DNA from: Chiloscyllium plagiosum
Taxonomy: Eukaryota
Direction: 5' to 3'
NCBI RefSeq assembly: GCF_004010195.1
Contig: NC_057719.1
Span: 5,882,570 to 5,944,252, forward strand
Length of the DNA: 61,683 nt
The notes beneath the pieces are model-generated. The model was not told where the DNA came from. It made no database searches and saw only the letters and a program-made list of their open reading frames with translations. How positions within the stretch are numbered: position 1 is the first letter of the stretch; each line of letters starts with the position of its first letter. The position numbers and the translations under genes are program-made. Below are positions 2,955-61,106 of the stretch, one piece after another.

Positions 2955-3048
2955 AGGAGAAAGTGAGGTCTGCAGATGCTGGAGATCAAAGTTGAAACTT
3001 TATTGCTGGAACAGCACAGCAGGTCAGGCAGCATCCAGGGAACAGGAG

Positions 3049-3084
3049 ATTCGACGTTTCGGGCACAGGCCCTTCTTCAGGAAT
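3049..3084 (-). ncRNA. Minimal type I hammerhead ribozyme motif, antisense copy
   Basis: Exact reverse complement of 3352-3387. Confidence 0.78.
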
Positions 3085-3351
3085 GAGCAGAGAGTGTTCA
3101 GCAGGAGAAGATAAAAGGTAGGGAGGAGGGACTTGGAGGAGGGGCGTTGGAAATGTGATAGGTGGAAAGAGGTCAAGGTGAGGGTGATAGGTCGGAGTAG
3201 GATGGAGGCGGAGAGGTCAACAAGAAGACTGCAGGTCAGGAAGGCGACGTGGTCGACGGTGCCCTCCACCGCATCTCCTCCACTTCCAACTCCCCTCCTC
3301 CAAGTCCCTCCTCCCTACCTTTTATCTTCTCCTGCTGAACACTCTCTGCTC

Positions 3352-3387
3352 ATTCCTGAAGAAGGGCCTGTGCCCGAAACGTCGAAT
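3352..3387 (+). ncRNA. Minimal type I hammerhead ribozyme motif (PLE-associated)
   Basis: Stem I ATTC/GAAT, core CTGAAGA, stem II GGGC/GCCC with CTGT loop, GAAA, vestigial palindromic stem III (ACGT), GTC triplet with predicted cut after 3383. Confidence 0.8.
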
Positions 3388-4856
3388 CTCCTGTTCCCTG
3401 GATGCTGCCTGACCTGCTGTGCTGTTCCAGCAATAAAGTTTCAACTTTGATATCCAAATGAATCCAACAAGAACTGGACCAAGCATATGTGGTACTCATA
3501 ATCTTCTTCATCCTAAGTATACGCATGATTTTACTACAACTGCTAAGTATTTCATCAGTAATATTTTCAGCAACATAACACAAAACATCGCAGATAAGAA
3601 AAACTGCAGCATATTAACATGCCAAATTTCCCCTAAAGTAAATGCATTAAAATTCCATCAAATTTGACAATATTGTTATGTATTTGGCTTTAAGGGGTTA
3701 ACACGTAGGGGGTTCCATACAACAGCCAAGCAGGGTGAGATCAATAGTTGTGATGTTGAGAAGATATGCTCTTCTTCATTAGGGTAAATAAAACCACAGA
3801 AAGTAGACAAAATCAAACACAAAATATTGCTGAGGAAAGGAGTGAACAAAGACAGAAATGGGAACTATTTAAATGTAAATCTATGATTCGCTCCAGTAAT
3901 AATATCTAACAATATTCAATATCTAGGATCATACCAAAAGAGTACTTTGAAGTATTAAAGGGATTTTCTGCTATCTAGTGATCTCTGAGGCATGAAGTTT
4001 CCCTTTCTTGATATGTGCAAGATCAAGACAAACACTAGGCATACAGTAACAGTGATATCACCGCAGGGAGTTGGCAGCCAATTACACTGAAGTATTCTCA
4101 AACAGCAAATCAGAAAGTAAAATGCAGTAAAATCTTCTACTCAATTAAAATTTCCACAGAGTAAATACAAATCATCAGTGATACACATGGGATTAAAGTA
4201 GCTGAAATATCATAACTTTTTTTTAAATTTGAAAAAAACATTATTGCCATAATAATGGCAAAAAAGCATCCCAGTGATATAACATTAGATTTCTATGAGT
4301 AACTATTGAGTTATTAAAATTAAATTGCATTTATATAGTAACTGTTATGGCCACAGAAAGATCCAAAATGCTTTACAGCCAATAAAGTACTTTGGAAGTA
4401 CAGTCAGTGTTGACACATAGCAGGCAATTTACATGTAGCAAGCTCCCACAAAAAGAAATGCTGTACTAATTATTGAAAAAATATTGACTATGACACCTGG
4501 AACAACTTTCTCATCAGTGGTGAGGTTCTGGAACCCACGAGTTCAAAGGGTAATACAGGCAAAAACCATAATCACATTAAAACATGCGGTGGAACAGTCA
4601 ATGGGTTTAGGAATCAAAATTTGGAGAGTGGGATTAGTGTGACGAGGTATTCATCGACTGGTATGGACATAATGTGCCAGACGACTACCTTCTGTGCATG
4701 AAATCTTACTGTGTTTTCTATGTATCTATAACTCTTATTAAAAATAGTGCCATTGGCTCTTCTATGTCTACATTAGAGGACAGACAGGCCTTCACTTAGT
4801 AGGCTCTCGTCAAAAAGATAGCAGCTTAAATCTTCCAACTTCCCTCACTGGATTGG

Positions 4857-5203
4857 AATGTGTTGCTGGAAAAGCGCAGCAGGTCAGGCAGCATCCAGGG
4901 AACAGGAGAATCGACGTTTCGGGCATAAACCCTTCTTCAGGAATGAGGAAAGTTTGTCCAGCAGGCTAAGATAAAAGGTAGGGAGGAGGGACTTGGGGGA
5001 GGGGCGTCGGAAATGTGATAGGTGGAAAGAGGTCAAGGTGAGGGTGATAGGCCAGACTGGGGTGGGGGCGGAGAGGTCGGGAAGAAGATTGCAGGTTAGG
5101 AAGGCGGTGCTGAGTTCGATGGATTTGACTGAGACAAGGTGGGAGGAGGGGAAATGAAATTTTCAGCTCTGATCTCCAGCATCTGCAGACCTCACTTTCT
5201 CCT
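4857..5203 (-). mobile_element. Neptune-like PLE 3' terminal fragment (second subfamily) with short inverted tip
   Basis: Same terminal repeat with AATGTGTTGCTGGAAAAGCGC variant. Hammerhead core on - at about 4910-4944. Inverted tip 5160-5203. Confidence 0.8.
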
Positions 5204-5573
5204 AGCCATAGTGAAGCCACACAGTGTCTAACTCAATGACTCGTCTCTGGTAAATACGAACGTTGTTGATCTCCTCTTGTGTTGAAATCAGAAACAGACA
5301 TGAAGGTGACAATTGGAAGCCACCCACCCTGCACTGAGACTGAAGCCAGCCGTCTCTGGTTTGATGTTTTCAAGAAAGACCTTTATATCTGCGATGGGAA
5401 GATTTGGGTGTCAATCTTACAAGGTAATGCAACAATATCATTAAGGTAGAGATGGATTGTTTGTAGTGCCACCCCTCAGTGAAGTTGTTAATGAATAAAT
5501 AGAATACATAAAGAAAGAAAGTCACATTTGTATGAACCTCAGCAAGGCTCATTACGGTCAATGAAATTTTTTT

Positions 5574-6088
5574 GGGGGCGGAGTTAGGCGTGGTGGCGGA
5601 ACGCGGCGGGGGGGCGGGGTTAGGCGTGGTGACGGAACGCGGCGGGGGGGCGGGGTTAGGCGTGGTGACGGAACGCGGCGGGGGGGCGGGGTTAGGCGTG
5701 GTGACGGAACGCGGCGGGGGGGCGGGGTTAGGCGTGGTGACGGAACGCGGCGGGGGGGCGGGGTTAGGCGTGGTGACGGAACGCGGCGGGGGGGCGGGGT
5801 TAGGCGTGGTGACGGAACGCGGCGGGGGGGCGGGGTTAGGCGTGGTGACGGAACGCGGCGGGGGGGCGGGGTTAGGCGTGGTGACGGAACGCGGCGGGGG
5901 GGCGGGGTTAGGCGTGGTGACGGAACGCGGCGGGGGGGCGGGGTTAGGCGTGGTGACGGAACGCGGCGGGGGGGCGGGGTTAGGCGTGGTGACGGAACGC
6001 GGCGGGGGGGCGGGGTTAGGCGTGGTGACGGAACGCGGCGGGGGGGCGGGGTTAGGCGTGGTGACGGAACGCGGCGGGGGGGCGGGGA
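5574..6088. repeat. GC-rich minisatellite, 36 bp unit GGCGTGGTGACGGAACGCGGCGGGGGGGCGGGGTTA x ~14
   Basis: Near-perfect tandem array visible directly. Gives 12-aa periodic ORFs in the track. Confidence 0.97.
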
Positions 6089-6928
6089 CACATGCGGGGA
6101 TGTGGTCCAAATGTAGGTTGCTGACGTCACTGGGGGCGGAAATAGCTGCGGCGACCACGGAGACAGAGTTTTCCCCATAGCCGCGGAGGTCGCCAATCTG
6201 TTGGCGATTGTCTTCATGACGATCGCAGAGCAGGTTGTCTGTGCGGCGATCCCGGAGGCGGTTGTTTGGGCCGCGATCATGAAGGTTGCGAGGTCGGTGG
6301 GGGCGGAAGTGACGTCATCGCCGGCGGCGTCTGCTGCTATTGCCGCGGGCGCTGTAGCGGCCGCGTGTGTAATGGCGCCGGACTGGTTTCGGAGGCCGAT
6401 GGAAGTTTCTGGAACGGTTTAGGAATCCGGAGTTTGGGGGTAAGTACATGAAAGTTTTTGGTACTTACTGCCTTTAATTTCCGATATGGCTAGAAAGAAC
6501 TGTTTGTTCAGTCTATGGATTCTTCTGTAAATGAAGAATAGTAGAGGTCCTTTACAGGTCTGTGAGAGAGTTGTCCTGAACTGGGGTAGGTCGAGTTGCA
6601 GGGAATGTAGGTACTGGCGCATGGCTGCAAGCGTGGAGTGGAGGATCCGGAGGGCAGTCCGTTGCTGGAGGCTGCGGATTTGTTGCAGGTACTGGTTGTC
6701 CTGGTTGGGTCCAAATTGTGTTGGTCGGAAGGTGATCTGGAGTCCATGGGAGATCAGTCGGTTCCGTAGGCAGGTGCTGAGAAAGGAGATATGGCTGTGG
6801 TAACGAGTCTGCTTCAGAATGTGGCTGAAGAGCTTCTGTGCAGAGGAGATGACCTGGGGTGTGCAGTGAGAGAGGAACTCACTGAAATCTTTGTAGAGAG
6901 AGGCAGAGAGCTTCTTCAAGGAAGGCAT
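5574..6928 (-). pseudogene. Neptune-like PLE ORF, N-terminal domain plus low-complexity linker (3'-truncated, disrupted)
   Basis: 6419..6928 contains HISFLSTCLRNRLISHGL, resembling the PLE N-terminal H..FL..C motif. ATG follows the PLE terminal repeat (6964-7015). Homologous to 61107-61683. In-frame TAA at 6419-21 where the other copy has TCA. Confidence 0.75.
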
Positions 6929-7015
6929 CCTTGTAAGAGGATTCGCAGTAGGTTGAAATCTTCGAGGAGAAAGTGAGGTCTGCAGATGCTGGAGATCAAA
7001 GTTGAAACTTTATTG

Positions 7016-9110
7016 CTATTCTCTCCCTAGTTACCCTTTTGTCCTCAATATATTTATCAAATCCCTTTGGGTTCTCCTTGGGCGGCACGGTGGCACAGTG
7101 GTTAGCACTGCTGCCTCACAGTGCCAGAAACCTGGGTTCAATTCCCGCCTCAAGCGACTGACTGTGTGGAGTTTGCACGTTTTCTCCATGTCTGCTTGGG
7201 TTTGCTCCGGGTGCTCCGGTTTCCTCCCACAGTCCAAAGATGTGCAGGTCAGGTGAATTGGCCATGCTAAATTGACCGTAGTGTTAGGTAAGGGGTAAAT
7301 GTAGGGGTATGGGTGGGTTGTGCTTCGGCGGGTCGGTGTGGACTTGTTGGGCCAAGGGCCTGTTTCCACACTGTAAGTAATCTAATCTAATCTAATCTAA
7401 TCATAATCCTATTTGCCAAAGCTATCTCATGTTCCCTTTTGGCCAAAGCTATCTCATGTTCCCTTTTGGCCCTGCTGATTTCCCTCTTAAGTATACTGCT
7501 ACTGCCTTTATACTCTACTAAGGATTAATTTAATCTATCTTGTCTCTACCTGACATATGCTTCCTTCTTTTTCTTAACCAAACCCTCATTTTCGTTAGTC
7601 ATCCAGCATTCCCTATACCTATCTGCCTTTCCTTTCACCCTAACAGGAATATACTATCTCTGGACTCTCATTATCTCATTTCTGAAGGCCTCCCATTTTC
7701 CAGCCATCCTTTTATCTGCAAACATCTGCCCCCAGTCAGCTTTTGAAAGTTCTTGCCTAAAATGTCAAAATTGGCCTTTCTCCAATTTAGAACTTCAACT
7801 TTTAGATCTGGTCTATCCTTTTCCATCACTTAAACTAATAGAGTTAAGGTCGCTGGCCCCAAACTGCTCTCCCACTAACACCTCAGTCACCTACCCTGCT
7901 TTATTCCCCAAGAGTAGGTCAAGTTTTGCATCCTCTCTAGTTAGGTACATCCACATATTGAATCAAAAAATTTTCTCGTACACACTTAACAAATTCCTCT
8001 CCATCTAAACCCTTAACACTCTGGCAGTCATAGTCTATGTTTGGAAAGTTAAAATCCCCTTCCATAACCACCCTATTATTCATACAGATAACTGAGATCT
8101 CCTTACAAATCTGTTTCTTAATTCCCGCTGACTATTGGGGGGTCTATTGTACAATCCCAATAAGGTGATCATTCCTTTCTTGTTTCTCAGTTCCACCCAA
8201 ATAACTTCCCTGGATGGATTCCCAGGAATATCCTCCCTAAATACAGCTGTAATGCTATACCTTATCAAAAATGCCACTGCCCCTCCTCTCTCGCCCCCCC
8301 CTTTCAATCCTCCCTGTAGCATTTGTATCCTGGAACATTAAGCTGCCAGTCCTGTCCATCCCTGAGCCACATCTCTGTAATTGCTATGATATGTCAGTCC
8401 CATGTTCCTAACCATGTCCTGAGTTCACCTGCCTTCCCTGTTAGGTCTCTTATATTGAAATAAATGCAGTTTAATTTATCAGTCCTAACTTGTTCTCTGC
8501 TTTGTTCCTGTCAGCCCTGACTGTTTGACACTCTCCTTTTCCCAACTGTACCAGTCTCAGATTGATCTCTGTCCTCACTATTTAGCTGGGTCCCCCCTCC
8601 TTCCCCTCCCAATATTACTCGTGTAAAACCTCCTGAGCACCTCTAGCTAATCTATATGTCCCCTTCAAATTCAGGTGCAATCTGCCCTTCTTGTACAGGA
8701 CACTTCTCTCCCAGAAGAGATTCCAATGATCCAAGAATGTAAACCCTTCTCCCCTGCACCAACTCCTCAGGCATTCATCTGCTCTATCATCCTATTCCTA
8801 CCCTCACGACCTCATAGCACCGGGAGTAATCCAGGTGCCCTCGAGGACCACCTTTTTAAATTCCTGCCTAACTTTCCATATTCTCCCTTCAGAATCTCAT
8901 CCCCTTTCCTTCCCAGTTCCAATGTGTATAGAAACCACCTGCTGGTCCCTCTCCCCTTTGAGAAGGTTCTGCACCCTCTCCAAGACATCCTTGATCCTGG
9001 AACCAGGGAAGCAACACACCATTCTGATTTTTCACCGCCGACCGCAGAAACATCTGTCTGTGCCTCTGATCGAGAGTCCCCTATCATAATCAATCACTTG
9101 GAACCCTTCA
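7016..9110 (-). mobile_element. CR1 LINE, 5' part (APE endonuclease and ORF1 SGNH-esterase region), same element as 1086-2954
   Basis: 8080..8322 (GGAVAFLIR...IWVELRNKKGMITLLGLYNRPPNS) is APE endonuclease. 8812..9093 (IMIGDS...) is esterase-like ORF1. Colinear with the CR1 copy at 37870-39860. Interrupted by a SINE at 7080-7402. Confidence 0.9.
7080..7402 (+). mobile_element. HE1-type tRNA-derived V-SINE, full length
   Basis: GGGCGGCACGGTGGCACAGTGGTTAGC head (A box), GGTTCAATTCC B box, V-domain TGTGTGGAGTTTGCACGT, CR1-like tail and (CTAAT)n end. Confidence 0.92.
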
Positions 9111-9118
9111 TACACTTT

Positions 9119-9680
9119 CATAGAATCCCTACTGTGTGGAAACAGGCCATTTGGCCCAACAATTCCACACCGACCCTCCGAAGAACATCTCACCCAGACC
9201 CACTCCCCGAAGCATATACCCCTGACGAAGGCACCTAACCTTACATGTCCCTGAACACTGTGGAGGAGAAAGTGAGGTCTGCAGATGCTGGAGATCAGAG
9301 CTGAAAATGTGTTGCTGGAAAAGCGCAGCTGGTCAGGCAGCATCCAGGGAACAGGAGAATCGACGTTTCGGGCATAAGCCTTCCTGAAGAAGGGCTTATG
9401 CCCGAAACGTCGATTCTCCTGTTCCCTGGATGCTGCCTGACCTGCTGCGCTTTTCCAGCAACACATTTTCAGCCCTGAACACTGTGGGCAATTTCCCATG
9501 GCCAATTCACCTAACCTGCACATCTTTGGATTATGGGAGGAAACCAGAGTACCTGGAGGAAACCCACGCAGACACAGGGAGAATGTGAAAACTCCACACA
9601 GACAGCCGCCCAAGGCTGGAATTGAATCTGGGTCCCTGGCACTGTGAGGCAGAAGTACTTATCACTGAGCCACTGTGCCA
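9119..9680 (-). mobile_element. HE1-type SINE interrupted by a PLE hairpin
   Basis: Reverse-complement similarity to 7080-7402. Split at 9263/9473 by an insertion with TSD. Confidence 0.85.
9264..9472. mobile_element. Fold-back PLE terminal element, TSD CCCTGAACACTGTGG
   Basis: TSD at 9249-9263 and 9473-9487. Inverted arms meet at the hammerhead core (CTGAAGAAGGGCTTATGCCCGAAACGTC). Confidence 0.9.
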
Positions 9681-9688
9681 TCCAGAGC

Positions 9689-9795
9689 CATTCTGAAGAA
9701 GGATCATTGAACCCGAAACTTTAAGACTACTTTCTTTCCATAGATGCTGCCGGAGCTGCTGAGTTTCTCCAGCAATTCCTGATTTTGTTTCTGAT
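9689..9795 (+). mobile_element. Older PLE terminal-repeat fragment (CTGAAGAAGGGTCACTGGACCCGAAAC family)
   Basis: Degenerate hammerhead core followed by GATGCTGCC...CTGCTGAGTTTCTCCAGCAATT. Confidence 0.65.
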
Positions 9796-12396: not shown

Positions 12397-12582
12397 GGAG
12401 GAGAAAGTGAGGTCTGCAGATGCTGGAGATCAGAGATGGAAATGTGTTGCTGGAAAAGCGCAGCAGGTCAGGCAGCATCCAGGGAACAGGAGAATCGACT
12501 GAAGAAGGGCTAATGCCCGAAACGTCGATTCTCCTGTTCCCTAGATGCTGCCTGACCTGCTGCGCTTTTCCAGCAACACATT
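12397..12582. mobile_element. Fold-back PLE terminal element, TSD ACAATCAACCATCA
   Basis: TSD at 12383-12396 and 12583-12596. Inverted arms. One intact hammerhead core on +. Confidence 0.9.
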
Positions 12583-14552: not shown

Positions 14553-15609
14553 AACCAACCGACTCCCACAGCTACCTGGACTACACCTCCTCCCATCCTG
14601 CCCCCTGTAAAAACGCTATCCCATTCTCCCCTCAGAGATCACTAGATAGCAGAAAATCCCTTTAATACTTCAAAGTACTCTTTTGGTATGATCCTAGATA
14701 TTGAATATTGTTAGATATTATTACTGGAGCGAATCATAGATTTACATTTAAATAGTTCCCATTTCTGTCTTTGTTCACTCCTTTCCTCAGCAATATTTTG
14801 TGTTTGATTTTGTCTACTTTCTGTGGTTTTATTTACCCTAATGAAGAAGAGCATATCTTCTCAACATCACAACTATTGATCTCACCCTGCTTGGCTGTTG
14901 TATGGAACCCCCTACGTGTTAACCCCTTAAAGCCAAATACATAACAATATTGTCAAATTTGATGGAATTTTAATGCATTTACTTTAGGGGAAATTTGGCA
15001 TGTTAATATGCTGCAGTTTTTCTTATCTGCGATGTTTTGTGTTATGTTGCTGAAAATATTACTGATGAAATACTTAGCAGTTGTAGTAAAATCATGCGTA
15101 TACTTAGGATGAAGAAGATTATGAGTACCACATATGCTTGGTCCAGTTCTTGTTGGATTCATTTGGATATCAAAGTTGAAACTTTATTGCTGGAACAGCA
15201 CAGCAGGTCAGGCAGCATCCAGGGAACAGGAGATTCGACGTTTCGGGCACAGGCCCTTCTTCAGGAATGAGCAGAGAGTGTTCAGCAGGAGAAGATAAAA
15301 GGTAGGGAGGAGGGACTTGGAGGAGGGGCGTTGGAAATGTGATAGGTGGAAAGAGCTCCATCCTACTCCGACCTATCACCCTCACCTTGACCTCTTTCCA
15401 CCTATCACATTTCCAACGCCCCTCCTCCAAGTCCCTCCTCCCTACCTTTTATCTTCTCCTGCTGAACACTCTCTGCTCATTCCTGAAGAAGGGCCTGTGC
15501 CCGAAACGTCGAATCTCCTGTTCCCTGGATGCTGCCTGACCTGCTGTGCTGTTCCAGCAATAAAGTTTCAACTTTGATCTCCAGCATCTGCAGACCTCAC
15601 TTTCTCCTC
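14553..15609 (+). mobile_element. Composite PLE insertion: RT fragment (14553-14629) + 539 bp captured DNA (14630-15168) + fold-back terminus (15169-15609)
   Basis: 14553-14629 encodes PTDSHSYLDYTSSHPAPCKNAIPFS, homologous to 30895-30975. 14630-15168 is the reverse complement of 3452-3990. Inverted arms carry hammerhead cores at ~15233-15268 (-) and ~15479-15514 (+). Confidence 0.85.
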
Positions 15610-20815: not shown

Positions 20816-21002
20816 GAGAAAGTGAGGTCTGCAGATGCTGGAGATCAGAGCTGGAAATGTGTTGCTGGAAAAGCGCAGCAGGTCAGGTAGCATCCAGGGA
20901 ACAGGAGAATCGATGTTAGAAGGGCTTATGCCCGAAACGTCGATTCTCCTGTTCCCTGGATGCTGCCTGACCTGCTGCGCTTTTCCAGCAATACATTTCC
21001 AG
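20816..21002. mobile_element. Fold-back PLE terminal element, TSD CTCTGTTCAAATGAAG
   Basis: TSD at 20800-20815 and 21003-21018. Inverted arms joined within the hammerhead core. Confidence 0.9.
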
Positions 21003-22014: not shown

Positions 22015-22235
22015 ACAAAAACAGAAATTGCTAGAGAAACTTGGCCAGTCTAGCACGATCTTGGAAAGAAACAGAGTTAGCATTTCGAGTCCAGTGATCC
22101 TTCAGTGTTCTGAAGAAGGGTCACTGGACTCTAAACATTAATTGTTTCTTTCTCCACAGATGCCGTCAGACCTGCTGAGCTTCTGACAATTTCTGTTTTT
22201 CAGTTTCAGATTTCCAGTATCTGCAGTTCTTTATT
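22015..22235. mobile_element. Older-family fold-back PLE terminal element (similar: 25145-25750, 27880-28060, 45590-45760, 46362-46550, 51390-51570; single arms 32035-32110, 57325-57455)
   Basis: AAACAGAAATTGCT...TCCAGTGATCCTTCAG followed by its reverse complement CTGAAGAAGGGTCACTGGA...ATTTCTGTTTT. Confidence 0.75.
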
Positions 22236-27800: not shown

Positions 27801-28109
27801 CTGTAATATTCCAGTCCATCTTGTCTATTTTAGACCCCAGCTTTATCACTAGATGTTTACCTGCTGAGTCTTTGATTAACAGAATATAGAAGCAAAGTAT
27901 TGTGGGTGCTGGAAACCTGAAGTAAAACAGGAAATGCTCGAACTGGCAGGATCTATCAAGAGAAAAGCAGTTACCATTTCAGGTCTGTGACCTTTCATCA
28001 GACATGAGGCTGCCAGATCTGCTGAGTGTTTGCTGCATTTTCTGATTTGATATTTCAATTCCTGGTCTGTGCTCACGTTATTAACAAGTCATTGATTTTT
28101 TTTTTAAAG

Positions 28110-28983: not shown

Positions 28984-29120
28984 CTGAAAATGTGTTGCTA
29001 GAAAAGCGCAGCAGGTCAGGCAGCATCCAAGGAGCAGGAGAATCGACGTTTCAGGCATGAGCCTTTCTTCAGGAATTCCTGCAACACATTTTCAGCATCT
29101 GCAGTCCTCACTTTCTCCTC
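28984..29120. mobile_element. Partial fold-back PLE terminal element, TSD AAAAGTGTATTAAG
   Basis: TSD at 28970-28983 and 29122-29135. Confidence 0.85.
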
Positions 29121-29258
29121 AAAAAGTGTATTAAGGGCAAGTAAGTGAATATGAGAGTAACAAGAACAGACATTGCTGGAAAAACTCAGCAGGTCTGGCA
29201 GCATCTGTGAAGAGAATCAGTTAACGTTTTGGGCCCAGTGACCATTCCTCATAACTTG

Positions 29259-30028
29259 GCAGATGTGGCTACTGCAGATGCTGGAGATTAGAATCAAGAT
29301 TAGAGTGGTGCTGGAAAAGCACAGCAGGTCAGGCAGCATCTGAGGAGCAGGAAAATCGACAAAGGCCCTTTATCAGGAATGAGGCTGGGAGCCTCGGGGG
29401 TGGAGAGATAAATGGGAGGGGGGTGGGCCTGGGGAGAAGGTAGCTGAGAGTGCAATAGGTGGATGGAGGTGGGGGTAAAGGTGATAGGTCAGAGAGGAGG
29501 GTGGAGCAGATGGATGGAAAGGAAGATTGACAGATGAGACAGGTCATGAGAACAGTGCTGAGCTGGAAGGCTGGAACTGGAGGGAGGGGAAATGAGAAAA
29601 CTGGTGAGGTCCATGTTGATGCCTTGGGGTTAAAGGGTCCCAAGGCGGAAGATGAGACATTCTTCCTTCAGGCGTTGGGAGGTAAGGGAGTGGCGATGGA
29701 GGAAGCCCAGCACCTGCATGTCCTCGGTAGAGTGGGAAGGGGAGTTGAAATGTTCGGCCACAGGTTGGTGGGTTTGATTGGTGTGGGTGTCCAGGAGATG
29801 TTCTCTGAAGCGCTCTACGAGAAGGCGTCCAGTCTCGCCAGTGTAGATGAGACCGCATCGGGAGCAGCAGATACAGTAAATGATACGTGTGGAAGTGCAG
29901 GTGAAACTTTGATGAATGTGGAATGCTCCTTTGGGGCCTTGGATGGAGGTGAGGAGGGAGGTGGGTAGGTGTGGGCGCAGGCTTTGCAATTCCTGCGGTG
30001 GCAGAGGAGGGTGGGTTGTTAGGGGGCC
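29259..30028 (-). mobile_element. Neptune-like PLE 3' portion: GIY-YIG endonuclease and terminal repeat
   Basis: ORF 29630..30043: IIYCICCSRCGLIYTGETGRLLVERFREH...PVAEHFNSPSHS (GIY-YIG with CCHH). Confidence 0.9.
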
Positions 30029-31473
30029 TTCCCAACTTCCCACCTATCCACTCCACCCTCCTCTCCGACCTATCACCTTTACCCCACCTCCTCCTACCGC
30101 CCCCTTGACCATGACATCACCCCCCAACACCAAACCATCATCTCCCAGACCGTACACAACCTGATCACCTCAGGGGATCTCCCACCCACAGCTTCCAACC
30201 TCATAGTTTGGGAACCCTGCATCGCCCGGTTCTACCTCCTACCCAAGGTCCACAAGCCTGACTACCTCGGCCGACCAATCGTCTCAGTCTGCTCCTGCCC
30301 CACTGAATTCATCTTCACCTACCTCGATACTGTCCTATTCCTCCCTGGTTCAGGAATTCTCCACATGCATTCGGGACACCACTCACCTCCTCCACCTCCT
30401 CCAAGACTTCCGTTTCCCCGGCCCCTGATACCTCATCTTACCTTGGACATCCAATCCTCTACACCTCCATCTACCTTGGCCAGGGCCTGCAAGCCCTCCA
30501 TTTCTTCGTCTCCTGACATCCCCACCAGTACCCTTCCACTGACACTCTCATTCTTTTGGTTGAACTGGTCCTCACCAATTTCTCCTCCAAATCCTCCCAC
30601 TTCCTTGAAATGAAAGGGGTAGCCATGGGCACCCGTATGGACCCCAGCTATGCCTCTCTCTTTGTTGGCTATGTAGAACAGTCCATCTTCCAGAGTTACA
30701 CTGGCACCATTCCCCATCTCTTCCTCCGCTACATTGATGACTGCATTGGCACCACCTTGTGCTCCCATAAAGAGGTTGTACAGTTCATCAACTCCACCCG
30801 ACCTTAAAGTCACCTGGACCATCTCTGACACTTCCTTCCCCATTCTGGACCTCTCCATCTCCATCAACGATGACTCACTTAACACTGACATTTTCTACAA
30901 ACCCATCAACTCCTACAGCTACCTGGATTACACCTTCTCCCACCTTACCTCCTGCAAAAATGCCATCCCGTATTTCCAATTCCTCCACCTCAGCAGCACC
31001 TGCTCCCAGGAGGACCAGTTCCACCACAGCATACACTAGATGGCCTTCCTCTTTCAAGGCGGAACTTCCCCTCCCATGTGGTTGAAGATGCCCTCCAATG
31101 CATCTCATCATGTCCCGCACCTCTGCCCTCAAACTCCACCCCTCTAACCGCAACAAGGACAGAACTCCCCTGGTCCTCACCTGCCACCCCACCAACTTCT
31201 GCATAGATCGCATTATTTGCCGACATTTCTGCCACCTACAAATGCACCCCACCACCAGGGATATATTTCCCTCCCCACCCCTATCTACTTTCGTAAAGAC
31301 CGTTCCCTCCACAACTACGTGGTCAGGTCCACGCCCCCTAACAACCCACCATCCTCTCCTGGCACCTTCCCCTGCCACCGCAGGAATTGCAAAACCTGCG
31401 CCCACACCTCCCCCCTCACCATTATCCAAGGCCCCAAAGGAGCCTTCCACGTCCATCAAAGTTTCACCTGCTC
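30029..31473 (+). mobile_element. Neptune-like PLE reverse transcriptase region (frameshifted), inverted relative to its 3' end
   Basis: FYLLPKVHK..GRP, GVAMGTRMDPSYASLFVG, FLRYIDD, FYKP..S.SYLDY and the zinc-knuckle linker GTFPCHRRNCKTCAH. Whole 29259-31473 unit flanked by TTCCTyATAACTTG (29245-58; 31474-87). Confidence 0.9.
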
Positions 31474-36526: not shown

Positions 36527-37028
36527 NNNNNNNNNNNNNNNNNNNNNNNNNNNNNNNNNNNNNNNNNNNNNNNNNNNNNNNNNNNNNNNNNNNNNNNNNN
36601 NNNNNNNNNNNNNNNNNNNNNNNNNNNNNNNNNNNNNNNNNNNNNNNNNNNNNNNNNNNNNNNNNNNNNNNNNNNNNNNNNNNNNNNNNNNNNNNNNNNN
36701 NNNNNNNNNNNNNNNNNNNNNNNNNNNNNNNNNNNNNNNNNNNNNNNNNNNNNNNNNNNNNNNNNNNNNNNNNNNNNNNNNNNNNNNNNNNNNNNNNNNN
36801 NNNNNNNNNNNNNNNNNNNNNNNNNNNNNNNNNNNNNNNNNNNNNNNNNNNNNNNNNNNNNNNNNNNNNNNNNNNNNNNNNNNNNNNNNNNNNNNNNNNN
36901 NNNNNNNNNNNNNNNNNNNNNNNNNNNNNNNNNNNNNNNNNNNNNNNNNNNNNNNNNNNNNNNNNNNNNNNNNNNNNNNNNNNNNNNNNNNNNNNNNNNN
37001 NNNNNNNNNNNNNNNNNNNNNNNNNNNN
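36527..37028. other. Assembly gap (N run)
   Basis: N characters. Confidence 1.
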
Positions 37029-38599: not shown

Positions 38600-39486
38600 N
38601 NNNNNNNNNNNNNNNNNNNNNNNNNNNNNNNNNNNNNNNNNNNNNNNNNNNNNNNNNNNNNNNNNNNNNNNNNNNNNNNNNNNNNNNNNNNNNNNNNNNN
38701 NNNNNNNNNNNNNNNNNNNNNNNNNNNNNNNNNNNNNNNNNNNNNNNNNNNNNNNNNNNNNNNNNNNNNNNNNNNNNNNNNNNNNNNNNNNNNNNNNNNN
38801 NNNNNNNNNNNNNNNNNNNNNNNNNNNNNNNNNNNNNNNNNNNNNNNNNNNNNNNNNNNNNNNNNNNNNNNNNNNNNNNNNNNNNNNNNNNNNNNNNNNN
38901 NNNNNNNNNNNNNNNNNNNNNNNNNNNNNNNNNNNNNNNNNNNNNNNNNNNNNNNNNNNNNNNNNNNNNNNNNNNNNNNNNNNNNNNNNNNNNNNNNNNN
39001 NNNNNNNNNNNNNNNNNNNNNNNNNNNNNNNNNNNNNNNNNNNNNNNNNNNNNNNNNNNNNNNNNNNNNNNNNNNNNNNNNNNNNNNNNNNNNNNNNNNN
39101 NNNNNNNNNNNNNNNNNNNNNNNNNNNNNNNNNNNNNNNNNNNNNNNNNNNNNNNNNNNNNNNNNNNNNNNNNNNNNNNNNNNNNNNNNNNNNNNNNNNN
39201 NNNNNNNNNNNNNNNNNNNNNNNNNNNNNNNNNNNNNNNNNNNNNNNNNNNNNNNNNNNNNNNNNNNNNNNNNNNNNNNNNNNNNNNNNNNNNNNNNNNN
39301 NNNNNNNNNNNNNNNNNNNNNNNNNNNNNNNNNNNNNNNNNNNNNNNNNNNNNNNNNNNNNNNNNNNNNNNNNNNNNNNNNNNNNNNNNNNNNNNNNNNN
39401 NNNNNNNNNNNNNNNNNNNNNNNNNNNNNNNNNNNNNNNNNNNNNNNNNNNNNNNNNNNNNNNNNNNNNNNNNNNNNNNNNNNNNN
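38600..39486. other. Assembly gap (N run)
   Basis: N characters. Confidence 1.
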
Positions 39487-41954: not shown

Positions 41955-42183
41955 GGAGACAGTGAGGACTGCAGATGCTGGAGATCAGAATTGAGAGTGT
42001 GTTGCTGGAAAAGCATAGCAAAGTCAGGCAGCATCTGAGGAGCAGGAAAATCTTCGTTTTGGACCGGAGCCCTTCATCAGGAATGAGGGTGCCCGTTCCT
42101 GATGAAGGGCTCTGGCCAGAAACGTCGATTCTCCTGCTCCTCAGATGCTGCCTGACCTGCTGTGCTTTTCCAGCAACACGCTG
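41955..42183. mobile_element. Fold-back PLE terminal element with degenerate hammerhead cores on both strands
   Basis: Inverted arms. Imperfect TSD CAAGCCTG..TGATG at ~41941-55 and ~42185-99. Confidence 0.8.
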
Positions 42184-42735
42184 TCAAGCCTGTCTGATGC
42201 CCAGGCCTTGCTGCATATGCTTCCAAGCCATTTGAGTGCTTGAGTTATGAGTGGTGCTGAATATTGTGCAATCATCAAATAATTTACTACTGACCTGAAT
42301 GATGGAGGGAAAGTCACTGATAAAACACCTGGAAGTGATTGGGGCCAGGACACCACCATCAAGAGGTCCTGGAAATGATTGAAATGGTGGAATTTGAATC
42401 TGTATGCGGTAAAAGTAAGACTGTTAACTGGAAGTTGCAATAAGCCAGCTTCTATGCAGACAGGTGGTGTGTGTGGCATTTATTCAGTATCTAGAAGCTG
42501 AATTAAAATAGAAGGGTGAAAGATTACAGATGAAACAACATTGAGTCTAACTTTGCCCTTGGAGGGATAATGATGTTATTGCCCTTCTATTTTAAGGAGT
42601 AGCACAAAAGTGTGTTACAAATGTTGCTATCCTTAAGTTACTGTCCTAAACTAGATTGAAACTAAGTCCAAATTAGATGAACTAAGGACCTAGTTAAATT
42701 TTTCTCTTTGTTTAAGTGTTTAATCACTCCTCCTA

Positions 42736-45769: not shown

Positions 45770-46940
45770 GTGCTGGGTTACAGGTTAGCACAAGTGCCAC
45801 AGTGGAGGCTGATGTTCAGTAGTATACCACAGGGATTGGTAATAGGTCCCGTATTGTTTGTGATATGTATAAATGTTGTCGGTGAGAATGTGTGGGGGCT
45901 GATAAGTTTGCAGATGACTTGAAGATTGTCCAGGTGGTTGACAATGAGCCAGAAAGTGTCAGGTTACAGGAAGATGTAGACTAACTTGTCAGATCAGTGG
46001 TAGAATTAAACTGATAAGTGTGAGGTGATGCATTTGGTAGAAGTAACAAGGCAAGGGAGTACTTGATGAATGGCATGATGCTTAAAAGCTCAGAGGAACA
46101 AAGGGATCTTTGTGTGTTGGTCCACAAATCCCTGAAGGTGGCAAGGCAGGTTAATAGTGCAGTTCAGTCATATGGAGATCTGCCTTTATCAGTCAAAGCA
46201 TGGATTATAAGAGTAGGCAGGTCATGTGGAGCTGTACAGGCCACAACTAGAGTTCTAGTCACTGTACTGTAGAAAGGATGTGATTGCCCTGGAGAGGTTA
46301 CAGGGGAATTTCCTGGGACAGAATGGATTAGCTATGAAGACAAAGGCTGGACAAGCTTGGAAACAAAAACAGAAGTTGTCAGAAAAGCTCAGCAGGTTTG
46401 GTAGCATCTGTGAAGAGAAATCAGAGTTAATTCTGGGGAAGGGTTACCAGACCCAACTCTGATTTCTCTTCACAGATGCTGCCAGAGATCTGCTGAACTT
46501 TTCCAGCATTTCTGTTCTTGTTTCTGATTTACAGCAACTGCGGTTCTTTCAAATTTTATTTGGATAAGTTTGGGTTGTTTTCTTTGAAGCAGAGAAGGTT
46601 GGGGGAGACTGATAAAGGTGTATAAGATTATGAGGGGCATGGGCAGGGTGAATAGAAAGCACTTGTTCCCCTTAGTTGAAGGATCAGTAACGAGAGCATA
46701 ATTTTAAGGAAGTTCAGAGGGAATTTGAGGAAAATATTTTTCGCCCAAAAGGTGACGATCTGGGATGCACTGCCTGGAAGGGTAGTCGAGGTGGGAAACC
46801 CCACAACCTTTTACTTGAATGAGTGTTTGAAGTCATAACATTCAAGTCTATGCACCTGTTGCTAGAAAGTGAATCTTGTGTAGTTTTAGAGATACAGACT
46901 TGGTAGGACAAAGGGGCTCATCTATATTCTATGAATCTGT
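45770..46940 (+). mobile_element. Decayed CR1 RT to 3' end, interrupted by an older PLE hairpin (46362-46550)
   Basis: GTATACCACAGGGA...AAGTTTGCAGATGAC motifs and ORF 46063 (EEQRDLCVLVHKSLKVARQV). Confidence 0.75.
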
Positions 46941-47279: not shown

Positions 47280-47740
47280 AGATTTGTAGCTCAGTTTGAT
47301 GATAAGTATATGTTAGCTCGCTGAGCTTGAAGGTTTGTTTTCAGACGTTTTGTCACCATACTAGGTAACATCATCAGTGAGAGTTTCCAGTGAAGTGCTA
47401 GTAGTATATCCTGCCTCTCTATTTATAGGTCTTGGTTTCTTAAGGTGGGTGATGTCATTTCTGGTTTTCTTTCTTTGAGTTATATCCATTTGACGTCAGG
47501 TGAATGTAAATACATGAATGTAGGTTTGCTCGCTGAGCTGGAAGGTTCATTTCCAGACGTTTCGTCACCCTACTGGGTAACATCTTCAGTTGGCAAAGCC
47601 CTGCTGATAATTCCTGCTTTCTATTTATATATTTGGGTTTCTTTGGGTTGGTGATGTCATTTCTTGCAGTGACGTCATTTCCTATTCTTTTTCTCGGGGT
47701 GGTAGATGGGGCCTAACTCAATGTGTTTGTTGATAGAGGA
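47280..47740 (-). mobile_element. Two tandem Poseidon-like PLE terminal repeats
   Basis: Repeated GCTCGCTGAGCT.GAAGGTT...CAGACGTTT.GTCACC.TACT.GGTAACATC.TCAGT at ~47316 and ~47528. Confidence 0.72.
47553..47593 (-). ncRNA. Minimal hammerhead ribozyme motif in a Poseidon-like terminal repeat
   Basis: Minus strand CCAA-CTGAAGA-T-GTTACCC-AGTA-GGGTGAC-GAAA-CG-TC-TGG: 7 bp stem II, intact core, GTC triplet. Confidence 0.72.
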
Positions 47741-58060: not shown

Positions 58061-58200
58061 TGTGTCATCTACTGTCTGGAATGCATCAGAAATATAAACC
58101 ATATACATTTCAGTTATCTCAGGTGCATGAGAATGATCATCACTGCTGACTTTGAAAACTCCTGCAAATCCTGTTACAGGATAAGTGTACCAATGTGAGC

Positions 58201-58436
58201 ATCAAAGTTGAAACTTTATTGCTGGAACAGCACAGCAGGTCAGGCAGCATCCAGGAAACAGGAGATTCGACGTTTCGGGCACAGGCCCTTCTTCAGAAGG
58301 CCCTCATTCCTGAAGAAGGGCCTGTGCCCGAAACGTCGAATCTCCTGTTCCCTGGATGCTGCCTGACCTGCTGTGCTGTTCCAGCAATAAAGTTTCAACT
58401 TTGATCTCCAGCATCTGCAGACCTCACTTTCTCCTC
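58201..58436. mobile_element. Fold-back PLE terminal element with back-to-back hammerhead cores, TSD CCAATGTGAGCATC
   Basis: TSD at 58190-58203 and 58436-58449. Arms 58201-58297 and ~58310-58405 are near-perfect inverted repeats. Same young subfamily as 2955 and 15169. Confidence 0.92.
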
Positions 58437-58477
58437 CAATGTGAGCATCCTCTCGCAAGTCATTATCCCCAGTATCA

Positions 58478-59556: not shown

Positions 59557-61106
59557 CTCTGGATTAGTGGTGCTGGAAGAGCATAGCAGTTCAGGCAGCA
59601 TCCGAGGAGCTTCGAAATCAACGTTTCGGGCAAAAACCCTTCATCAGGAATAAAGGCAGAGAGCCTGAAGCGTGGAGAGATAAGCTAGAGGAGGGTGGGG
59701 GTGGGGAGAGAGTAGCATAGAGTACAATGGGTGAGTGGGGGAGGGGATGAAGGTGATAGGTCAGGGAGGAGAGGGTGGAGTGGATAGGTGCAAAAGGAGA
59801 TAGGCAGGTAGGACAAGTCCGGACAAGTCATGGGACAGTGCNNNNNNNNNNNNNNNNNNNNNNNNNNNNNNNNNNNNNNNNNNNNNNNNNNNNNNNNNNN
59901 NNNNNNNNNNNNNNNNNNNNNNNNNNNNNNNNNNNNNNNNNNNNNNNNNNNNNNNNNNNNNNNNNNNNNNNNNNNNNNNNNNNNNNNNNNNNNNNNNNNN
60001 NNNNNNNNNNNNNNNNNNNNNNNNNNNNNNNNNNNNNNNNNNNNNNNNNNNNNNNNNNNNNNNNNNNNNNNNNNNNNNNNNNNNNNNNNNNNNNNNNNNN
60101 NNNNNNNNNNNNNNNNNNNNNNNNNNNNNNNNNNNNNNNNNNNNNNNNNNNNNNNNNNNNNNNNNNNNNNNNNNNNNNNNNNNNNNNNNNNNNNNNNNNN
60201 NNNNNNNNNNNNNNNNNNNNNNNNNNNNNNNNNNNNNNNNNNNNNNNNNNNNNNNNNNNNNNNNNNNNNNNNNNNNNNNNNNNNNNNNNNNNNNNNNNNN
60301 NNNNNNNNNNNNNNNNNNNNNNNNNNNNNNNNNNNNNNNNNNNNNNNNNNNNNNNNNNNNNNNNNNNNNNNNNNNNNNNNNNNNNNNNNNNNNNNNNNNN
60401 NNNNNNNNNNNNNNNNNNNNNNNNNNNNNNNNNNNNNNNNNNNNNNNNNNNNNNNNNNNNNNNNNNNNNNNNNNNNNNNNNNNNNNNNNNNNNNNNNNNN
60501 NNNNNNNNNNNNNNNNNNNNNNNNNNNNNNNNNNNNNNNNNNNNNNNNNNNNNNNNNNNNNNNNNNNNNNNNNNNNNNNNNNNNNNNNNNNNNNNNNNNN
60601 NNNNNNNNNNNNNNNNNNNNNNNNNNNNNNNNNNNNNNNNNNNNNNNNNNNNNNNNNNNNNNNNNNNNNNNNNNNNNNNNNNNNNNNNNNNNNNNNNNNN
60701 NNNNNNNNNNNNNNNNNNNNNNNNNNNNNNNNNNNNNNNNNNNNNNNNNNNNNNNNNNNNNNNNNNNNNNNNNNNNNNNNNGAAAAAACGGAGGGCTTGG
60801 AGGCCCTGGTCATGGTGGATGGAGGTGTAGAGGGATTGGATATCCATGGTGAAGGTGAGGCATTAGGGGCCGGGGAAACGGAAATCTTAGAGGAGGTGGA
60901 GGGCGTGGGTGGTGTCTCGAACATATGTGGGGAGTTCCTGGACTGGGGGGATAGGACAGTGTCGAGGTAGGTAGAGATGAGTTCAGTGGGGCAGGATCAT
61001 GCTGAGACAATGGGTCGGCCAGGGTGGTCAGGCTTGTGGATCTTGAGAAGGAGGTAGAGCCGGGCATTGTGGGGTTCCCGGACTATGAGGTTGGAAGCTG
61101 TGGGTG
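59557..61106 (-). mobile_element. Neptune-like PLE (3' terminus and RT), spanning a gap
   Basis: Terminus with CTGATGA-AGGG-TTTTT-GCCC-GAAACG on - (~59620-59650). MDIQSLYTSIHHDQGLQALRFF is a PLE RT motif (60782-60847). Confidence 0.85.
59842..60781. other. Assembly gap (N run)
   Basis: N characters. Confidence 1.

Follow-up and report, generated by a model that had tools for sequence, protein, structure and literature searches.

Insertions of Penelope-like elements (PLEs) have been described in rotifers, where the inverted pseudo-long terminal repeat (pLTR) of Penelope is 37 bp shorter than the direct ones, a 31-bp tail is present on one pLTR, and a target site duplication (TSD) is found (PMC3846280). 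Junction palindromes, initiator (Inr) and TATA motifs in the pLTR, and the possible capture of host DNA were also reported for this element (PMC3846280), and PLEs have been described as carrying an inverted, 5'-truncated copy and a one-sided tail of 30-40 bp (PMC8557442). The hammerhead ribozyme motifs of PLEs occur in pairs, 100-700 bp apart on opposite strands, single motifs being tied to truncated PLEs, and the minimal forms show low activity, and only as dimers (PMC4209133). The Poseidon protein of the lizard Anolis nicks and extends both DNA strands in vitro from two adjacent internal start sites, the tail being the stretch between them, and hammerhead cleavage is dispensable for insertion in vitro (PMC11167929). 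Here, we analysed a 61,683-nt stretch of the Chiloscyllium plagiosum genome (contig NC_057719.1, positions 5,882,570-5,944,252; hereafter, the window), in which a 232-base fold-back at positions 58204-58435 consists of two inverted copies of a hammerhead-bearing PLE pLTR end. This fold-back was probably created at insertion, i.e. both nicked target strands were probably primed at two internal sites of an element RNA, and the resulting complementary DNAs (cDNAs) ran off the probable 5' end of that RNA.

Among the forms of the known PLE insertion unit, the fold-back is the shortest, and it is not a new class. It shares with the units of endonuclease-bearing (EN+) PLEs, as presented by Arkhipova et al. 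(2013) and Craig et al. (2021), a head-to-head pLTR arrangement, an inverted copy that is shorter by about the tail length, a tail at one end, a short TSD, junction palindromes, frequent 5' truncation, and the capture of foreign DNA. It differs from them in that the direct copy is cut down to the leader and the whole insertion consists of the two arms (about 200-236 bp), and in that this two-arm form is the majority product, being found at 53 of 100 sampled ends. The palindrome, which had been put forward as a possible new class, is an arrangement already described for PLEs (PMC3846280, PMC8557442, and PMC4209133). A strict one-tail pairing and a common stop, which were measured here, were not found stated in the accessible parts of PMC3846280 and PMC8557442.

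Positions along the arm are given on a reference ruler (ref), namely the 253-nt arm at window positions 15356-15608. On this ruler, CATTCC is located at 123-128, CTGAAGA at 128-134, and GAAACGTC at 148-155, ...GTTTCAAC ends at 217, and the tail ends at 252/253. Two start sites are distinguished, i.e. an outer one at the tail end (site 1, ...CTCACTTTCTCC) and an inner one without a tail (site 2, ...GTTTCAAC). The left arm of the element (58204-58296) repeats the right arm (58303-58435) in reverse complement, except for the last 34 nt or so of the latter, and site 2 is contained in a stem-loop, AAAGT-TTCA-ACTTT, located 3' of the predicted cut in the sense arm (Table 1).

The pattern CTGANGA-N10-18-GAAACGTC yielded 11 matches in the window and none in 100 shuffled sequences. 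The Rfam models gave no hammerhead hit at either the gathering score or E <= 10 and returned only generic microRNA-hairpin matches to the palindromes, a miss that is expected because the motif lacks helix III. All of the features of the minimal PLE hammerhead are present in CTGAAGA-A-GGGC CTGT GCCC-GAAA-CGTC, i.e. an extra A follows position 9, a G-C pair occupies 10.1-11.1, a palindromic ACGU replaces helix III, and helix I is 4 bp long, in line with the CUGANGA and GAAA boxes, extra base 9/10.1, G10.1-C11.1, ACGU, and 4-bp helix I given in the accessible text of Cervera and De la Pena (2014, PMC4209133). Unlike the motifs described there, the hammerhead is known here from its sequence and predicted fold. 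A compensatory helix II variant, AGGC...GCCT, is present at 29045-29072. Cores on both strands were found in three copies, namely in the longest ones (2955-3456 and 15164-15608), as originally predicted, and also in 58204-58435. The minimum-energy fold of a lone arm contains helix I (ATTC/GAAT) and helix II, the hammerhead fold amounting to -7.7 kcal/mol, whereas 58204-58435 as RNA folds into a single near-perfect hairpin (-191 kcal/mol, z = -24) in which the two cores are paired with each other. With both cores locked in this duplex, the idea of an ambisense ribozyme is weak. An exact start at the predicted cut was identified in one of 100 sampled copies (L099), and in two further copies (L058 and L079) the start is no more than 3 nt away from this cut. 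The hammerhead motifs in the truncated insertions of the family (stubs) are predicted to be passengers. L099, at 23.25 Mb of contig C1, is a 97-bp stub that starts at the predicted cleavage product GAATCTCC....

Judged by sequence features, the arms are the pLTR ends of a young, very abundant PLE family, which agrees with the original prediction: a short TSD, a one-sided tail of 34 nt, an inverted pLTR that is shorter by about the tail length, and the hammerhead motif were all found. The border between tail and element body (TCGAAGATTTC...) occurs 354 times in the genome, and also in the window at 6963 and below, where a truncated arm on the minus strand (7029-6964) has a tail that leads directly into TCGAAGATTTCAACC... 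and a 196-codon open frame. Because the tail is continuous with the element body, both start sites are internal to the element RNA. Some insertions finish with ...CTCC-TCGA before the TSD. A Pfam search of 32 window frames revealed no reverse transcriptase (RT) match, its sole hit being a GIY-YIG domain, and no long frame was found in three loci with internal tails. A homologue search with the 196-aa post-tail frame returned two hits from 581 candidates, both of them shark gene models whose names are uninformative, and no RT or EN domain was found in either. In the fetched loci, the coding body of the young family reads as runs of N, some of which begin within an arm; such runs occur at L186 and L187, among other loci, and in the window at 36527-37028, 38600-39486, and 59842-60781. 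In one raw single-cell poly(A) RNA run, the arm is covered on both strands, and the depth tracks the genomic copy number; neither this run nor three contig sets yielded RNA starts or usable joints. At site 2 (window 15573, ref 218), 33 RNA reads end and run on into a loose poly(A)-like stretch with the consensus GGGAAAA... (agreement 0.62). AATAAA is present at ref 204-209, and the read ends at ref 218 could reflect polyadenylation within the arm or, alternatively, internal priming from a single A-rich locus.

In the genome (3.56 Gb), the exact 39-nt tail end is present in 9,563 copies and a 29-nt site-2 word ending ...GTTTCAAC in 18,737 copies. The 30 best genome matches to the whole element all have distinct flanks and their own TSDs (the latter judged by eye) and near-identical arms, the variation being located mainly at the centre; this set is skewed toward the shape of the query. 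An unselected sample was formed by the first 100 tail ends on contig C1, and the sample counts below refer to it. An inverted arm lies within 45 nt of the tail-bearing arm at 53 of these ends, and the modal length of the fold-backs is 204-230 bp. Exact flanking repeats of at least 9 nt were identified in 65 of the 100 copies, a few of them by chance; the TSDs are 10-16 bp long and motif-free, and at locus L037, the true 14-bp TSD is placed further out than the flanking-repeat call. An A/G difference at ref 168 was considered as a mark of two RNA pools or of editing and was rejected as an ascertainment effect of query-like BLAST hits, since it was gone in the unselected sample. Two fold-backs with different junctions (L010 and L017; TSDs GGAAGGATATGG and GGAGGGATAAGG) occupy the same position of homologous flanking repeats, a coincidence that hints at a preferred target site within another repeat family.

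The end points of the arms are regular. The outer end of the inverted arm falls at ref 216-224 in 44 of the 53 fold-backs and at the tail in none; in six it lies at ref 228-231 (four at ref 228, all composites, and L032 and L123 at ref 231), and in three the arm is shorter. The element had been described as having one fixed and one variable end; the tail end is indeed fixed, but the second end is nearly fixed too. The inner end lies at ref 122-131 in 41 of 53 inverted arms and at ref 120-133 in 30 of 53 tail-bearing arms, and 21 of the 47 sampled copies that have no abutting inverted arm start at ref 117-131. The stop common to fold-backs and simple stubs is thus located just 5' of hammerhead helix I, where an Inr-like TCATTCC is found (A = ref 124), with a TATA-like TTTTATC at -32 to -26. 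Because the break points of the fold-backs are the 5' ends of plain, non-hairpin stubs, their near-constant shape is attributed to a constant template end and not to descent.

The two start sites are combined in one way only. Among the first 100 site-2 words on C1, 24 convergent pairs were identified, all 24 of which are one-tailed (exact tail on one arm in 21, mutated tail on one arm in 3), and no two-tailed or tail-less pair was found among them. When unpaired site-2 arms were fetched, 13 of 18 proved to be simple stubs extending from ref ~124 to 218. Since independent site choice gives mixed pairs in at most half of the cases, 24 mixed pairs out of 24 are incompatible with it.

Junctions were compared in the 35 sampled fold-backs that retain both helix II sequences, and 29 different strings were found. 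Many are perfect palindromes with a palindromic centre of 2-4 nt (AATT or GGCC), e.g. ..CAGGAATTCCTG.. and ..GGAATGGCCATTCC.., while others look like two 3' ends that meet directly or with up to 4 extra bases between them, and in some junctions 1-8 central bases are left unpaired. The commonest junction is shared by five copies, all with different TSDs, and shows a 3-nt GAA overlap. No extra cap-derived G was detected at the starts of 23 simple stubs, the 5' joints of which are mostly microhomologies with the target.

The origin that we consider probable for 58204-58435 would proceed as follows. Given the spacing of the Inr-like TCATTCC and TTTTATC, ref 124 is probably the transcription start, i.e. 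the 5' end of the RNA. Both nicked target strands would prime reverse transcription on one leader RNA. If site 2 were used first, the RNA 3' of it would stay single-stranded and site 1 would still be able to fire, whereas if site 1 were used first, site 2 would be copied over and a simple stub only would result; such a fixed firing order would give only mixed pairs, while simple stubs of both kinds exist. Both cDNAs would run off at ref ~124, their 3' ends would anneal by a few bases or, alternatively, the enzyme would jump template, and host repair would seal a palindrome of about 95 + 129 nt, a size that agrees with the modal length. As the stubs have no promoter, beginning at the start site, and no post-tail sequence, they are predicted to be dead on arrival. 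Priming of both strands, as proposed here, two adjacent internal sites, and a start site in a small stem-loop are shared with Poseidon (Frangieh et al. 2024, PMC11167929). Unlike the situation with Poseidon, which shows no strand preference and for which joining was not followed (PMC11167929), the genomic record here pairs a site-1 end with a site-2 end obligatorily. A tentative extension, which we regard as somewhat doubtful, is that the stubs record the double copying of one leader RNA from the two sides of the DNA cut, in an obligatory order from inner to outer site and up to a capped RNA start at the hammerhead edge, and that head-to-head sources can give rise to further copies of such palindromic modules, in which either arm may bear the tail.

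Several points weigh against priming of both strands followed by run-off. The strict pairing is not predicted by PMC11167929, in which no difference between strands in site use is reported, and it needs the added idea of an order of firing. A single odd central base or longer junction fillers are explained by end-joining or snap-back no less well than by annealing. No RNA 5' end or start pile-up was seen at ref 124 in the single-cell run, which is neutral on the inferred start site, speaking neither for nor against it. Some junctions are inherited (a complex 39-nt junction and a composite lineage, both described below), and not every fold-back was made anew. Lastly, the common stop could be due to stalling of the enzyme at a folded, protein-bound hammerhead instead of a true RNA end, the remainder of the process being as proposed. 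We consider such a block improbable. The stop does lie exactly at the outer edge of helix I, the PLE protein aids hammerhead folding (PMC11167929), and about 15 of the 100 sampled copies pass to ref <110, so longer templates exist; however, the motif would already be fully unwound when the enzyme reached ref 124, and a structural stop is expected 3' of it. The Inr-like and TATA-like motifs are, moreover, at the right spacing, and in L173 the tandem units follow body sequence without a gap and begin at ref 123, which is what a jump off a true end would give. Single priming, in which the site-1 cDNA reaches the RNA 5' end, snaps back, and copies itself to about site 2, the hairpin being later unfolded and sealed, is rather unlikely. 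It leaves the stop at site 2 unexplained, though site 2 ends simple stubs independently (the 13 of 18 mentioned above), and copy-back cannot yield a short tail arm beside a full second arm, as found at window 28984-29121 and in L047, L056, L071, L089, and L091, in which the sense arm comprises only ref 180-194 to 253. Spacer-free perfect palindromes with AATT or GGCC centres are awkward for it as well, and a PLE protein does prime on both strands in vitro (PMC11167929). These points stand against the one tail per fold-back that snap-back would give by construction, the resemblance of junctions with 1-8 unpaired central bases to hairpin loops, and the reading of junction palindromes in rotifer Penelope as self-priming (accessible text of PMC3846280).

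The original prediction favoured a distinct non-autonomous family, retrozyme-like or similar to miniature inverted-repeat transposable elements (MITEs), that would be transcribed as a ribozyme hairpin in either direction and re-inserted by PLE enzymes, and it proposed junction identity as the check. Nearly all junctions are unique, as judged from the 29 strings in 35 fold-backs and from the window copies, which all differ, but a minority is shared. One complex 39-nt junction was found 29 times in the genome, and at least 13 of these copies are clean 236-bp fold-backs with different TSDs, with the tail on one arm in eight and on the other in five. Four are longer TSD-flanked composites, the inverted side of which is a more-than-unit copy with post-tail sequence, and three (L143, L149, and L153) have a common flank and hence are not independent. 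The link between a diagnostic base and one side of the junction holds in 25 of 25 non-composite copies, and the complex-junction copies are a true lineage; both tail orientations would follow equally from a head-to-head source read both ways or from a heteroduplex between two cDNAs of the same sense. Together with the composite lineage and with the report that pLTR sequences suffice in cis (accessible text of PMC3846280), these copies favour a hairpin family. Transposition as a hairpin nevertheless finds no general support, and we consider such a family very improbable as the origin of 58204-58435: the complex junction accounts for only 0.3% of the 9,563 tail ends, most sampled junctions are different, and the break points are the same as those of non-hairpin stubs. 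In addition, the short hairpins begin only at ref ~124 and are thus without the promoter side, they also have no post-tail sequence, part of which is required by the lizard enzyme (PMC11167929), TSDs of 10-16 bp and a one-sided tail are unlike those of a DNA transposon, and the hammerhead would be outcompeted in the hairpin RNA by the margin given above. The longer members of the inherited lineages, with post-tail sequence or upstream foreign DNA, are better source candidates, and longer head-to-head or read-through templates are more likely than short hairpins to have been the sources of both lineages. The fold-back shared by L143, L149, and L153 seems to be carried along by another repeat, and in L153, the arm abuts a frame resembling a LINE (long interspersed nuclear element) endonuclease (..GDFNFP..).

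The composite lineage joins fold-backs to a non-PLE sequence, X, and comprises the two longest window copies (2955-5573 and 14630-15608) and four of the 100 sampled ends (L037+L172, L048, L114, and L115). X adjoins the tail-less arm on its upstream side and is 5'-truncated at different points (window 14630, L048, L115, and L114), and the palindrome centres of the lineage differ, with at least three variants. A 3.0-kb insertion on C1, flanked by a 14-bp TSD, matches window 3284-5573 with 99.9-100% identity, and at the far end of this insertion lies another inverted arm that begins from site 2. An inverted segmental duplication was considered for 2955-3456 and 15164-15608 and rejected: X is also present at unrelated loci, variably 5'-truncated and with other right flanks. 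Within X itself, an older fold-back occupies 4863-5203. Between X and the PLE body fragment at 6100-7029, a tandem array is found at 5574-6087, in which a 36-bp unit is repeated about 14 times with about 99.5% identity.

Animal non-LTR retrozymes were reportedly described by Cervera and de la Pena in 2020 as short, non-coding, hammerhead-bearing derivatives of PLEs. The fold-backs resemble the animal non-LTR retrozymes covered in the accessible part of the preprint of Li et al. (2026, 10.64898/2026.07.22.740005) in being short, non-coding, hammerhead-bearing PLE derivatives, and 224-bp head-to-tail arrays do exist in the genome. Unlike such retrozymes, which form head-to-tail units of 170-400 bp and circular RNA, the fold-backs are inverted and contain no complete unit between two cut sites, and no sign of circular RNA from the fold-backs was found. 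The arrays with 224-bp spacing are located at L119-L122 (C1:26.52 Mb), C1:16.163 Mb, C2:128.77 Mb, and C8:24.158 Mb; their unit, which consists of ref 110-253 and the first 80 nt after the tail and has one hammerhead, is a retrozyme-like deletion derivative of the same PLE family, and L122, a single insertion of 850 bp flanked by a 13-bp TSD, includes a 162-nt piece of element body. The fold-backs are also unlike MITEs or fold-back DNA transposons, their ends being asymmetric, with the tail on one side, their TSDs 10-16 bp long and motif-free, and their arms the leader of a retroelement. In twin priming of LINE-1 (L1), a second primer is supplied by the other target strand, and an inverted 5' part results inside one TSD. 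The segment inverted in L1 is another one, lying further 5', whereas the two arms of the fold-backs are copies of one leader made from two fixed start sites, which yields a true palindrome.

For annotation, these data indicate that repeats of ~130 bp and ~220 bp, present in thousands, should be masked as truncated PLE insertions and not as a hairpin family, a microRNA-like locus, or a MITE. The one-tail rule, the initiator-like stop, and the junction microhomology provide testable constraints on a model that was derived from in vitro work on a single lizard element. How PLEs integrate is poorly understood, and both the regularities at the population scale and the two inherited lineages of palindromes may merit specialist attention. 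For the host, near-perfect 95-bp inverted repeats are placed into transcribed DNA.

Table 1. Features of the fold-back at 58204-58435 and of related insertions elsewhere in the window
Feature	Position	Strand	Basis or remark
Left TSD copy, 14 bp, CCAATGTGAGCATC	58190..58203	.	Direct repeat flanking the element
Inverted (antisense) arm	58204..58296	-	From the site 2 start ...GTTTCAAC, ref ~218-223, to ref 128; no tail
Minus-strand hammerhead core inside inverted arm	58269..58296	-	Pattern match
Arm-arm junction	58297..58302	.	Central string shared with locus L002; absent from other window copies
Sense arm, ref 121-218	58303..58400	+	Helix I 5' strand ATTC; site 2 in 3' stem-loop
Plus-strand hammerhead core, CTGAAGA-A-GGGC CTGT GCCC-GAAACGTC	58310..58337	+	Predicted cut after GTC
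One-sided tail TTTGATCTCCAGCATCTGCAGACCTCACTTTCTCCT, ~34 nt	58401..58435	+	Terminates at outer start site (site 1)
Right TSD copy, CCAATGTGAGCATC	58436..58449	.	Matches 58190-58203
Composite: long fold-back 2955-3456 (tail at 2955), with at least 2.1 kb of non-PLE sequence X preceding on the minus strand	2955..5573	-	
5'-truncated pLTR end (ref 201-253), continuing beyond the tail into element body TCGAAGATTTCAACC...	6400..7029	-	Sequence comparison
Fold-back of an older subfamily; the tail-bearing arm (minus strand) spans ref 133-253 and the other arm ref 125-215	9264..9472	-	15-bp TSD CCCTGAACACTGTGG
Older-subfamily fold-back; junction a few bases off that of 20816-21002	12397..12582	-	14-bp TSD ACAATCAACCATCA
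Shorter composite: 534 nt of X, inverted arm ref 228-37, arm ref 1-253 with tail	14630..15608	+	Junction same as L114
Older-subfamily fold-back	20816..21002	-	16-bp TSD CTCTGTTCAAATGAAG
Fold-back; tail arm consisting of the tail only (ref 227-253, 27 nt), second arm full length (ref 124-219)	28984..29121	+	14-bp TSD AAAAGTGTATTAAG
Frame for the GIY-YIG endonuclease of a related, older PLE	29633..30043	-	Pfam PF01541, 23.3 bits vs cut-off 22.6
Old fold-back sharing about 80% identity with the young family	41955..42184	-	Imperfect TSD

All eight copies that had been listed as independent insertions gave an arm match, and their junctions are mutually different. Six of the eight have their own TSD at the predicted borders; the other two, 2955-3456 and 15164-15608, have none there, both being ends of longer composite insertions. 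The older family that had been noted near 22015, 27880, 46362, and 51390 was recovered as decayed fold-backs of related families with the same architecture, the inverted arms being detected at 22062-22156 and 46399-46484 and the sites at 27880 and 51390 being judged by eye. A homologous hammerhead-bearing pLTR is located at 29100-29420, and the GIY-YIG frame lies about 250 nt upstream of it. A hammerhead-like motif with a 7-bp helix II (CTGAAGA-TGTTACCC AGTA GGGTGAC-GAAACGTC), belonging to another repeat family, is present on the minus strand at 47552-47589, and a further, decayed hammerhead-like motif starts at 9693 on the plus strand.

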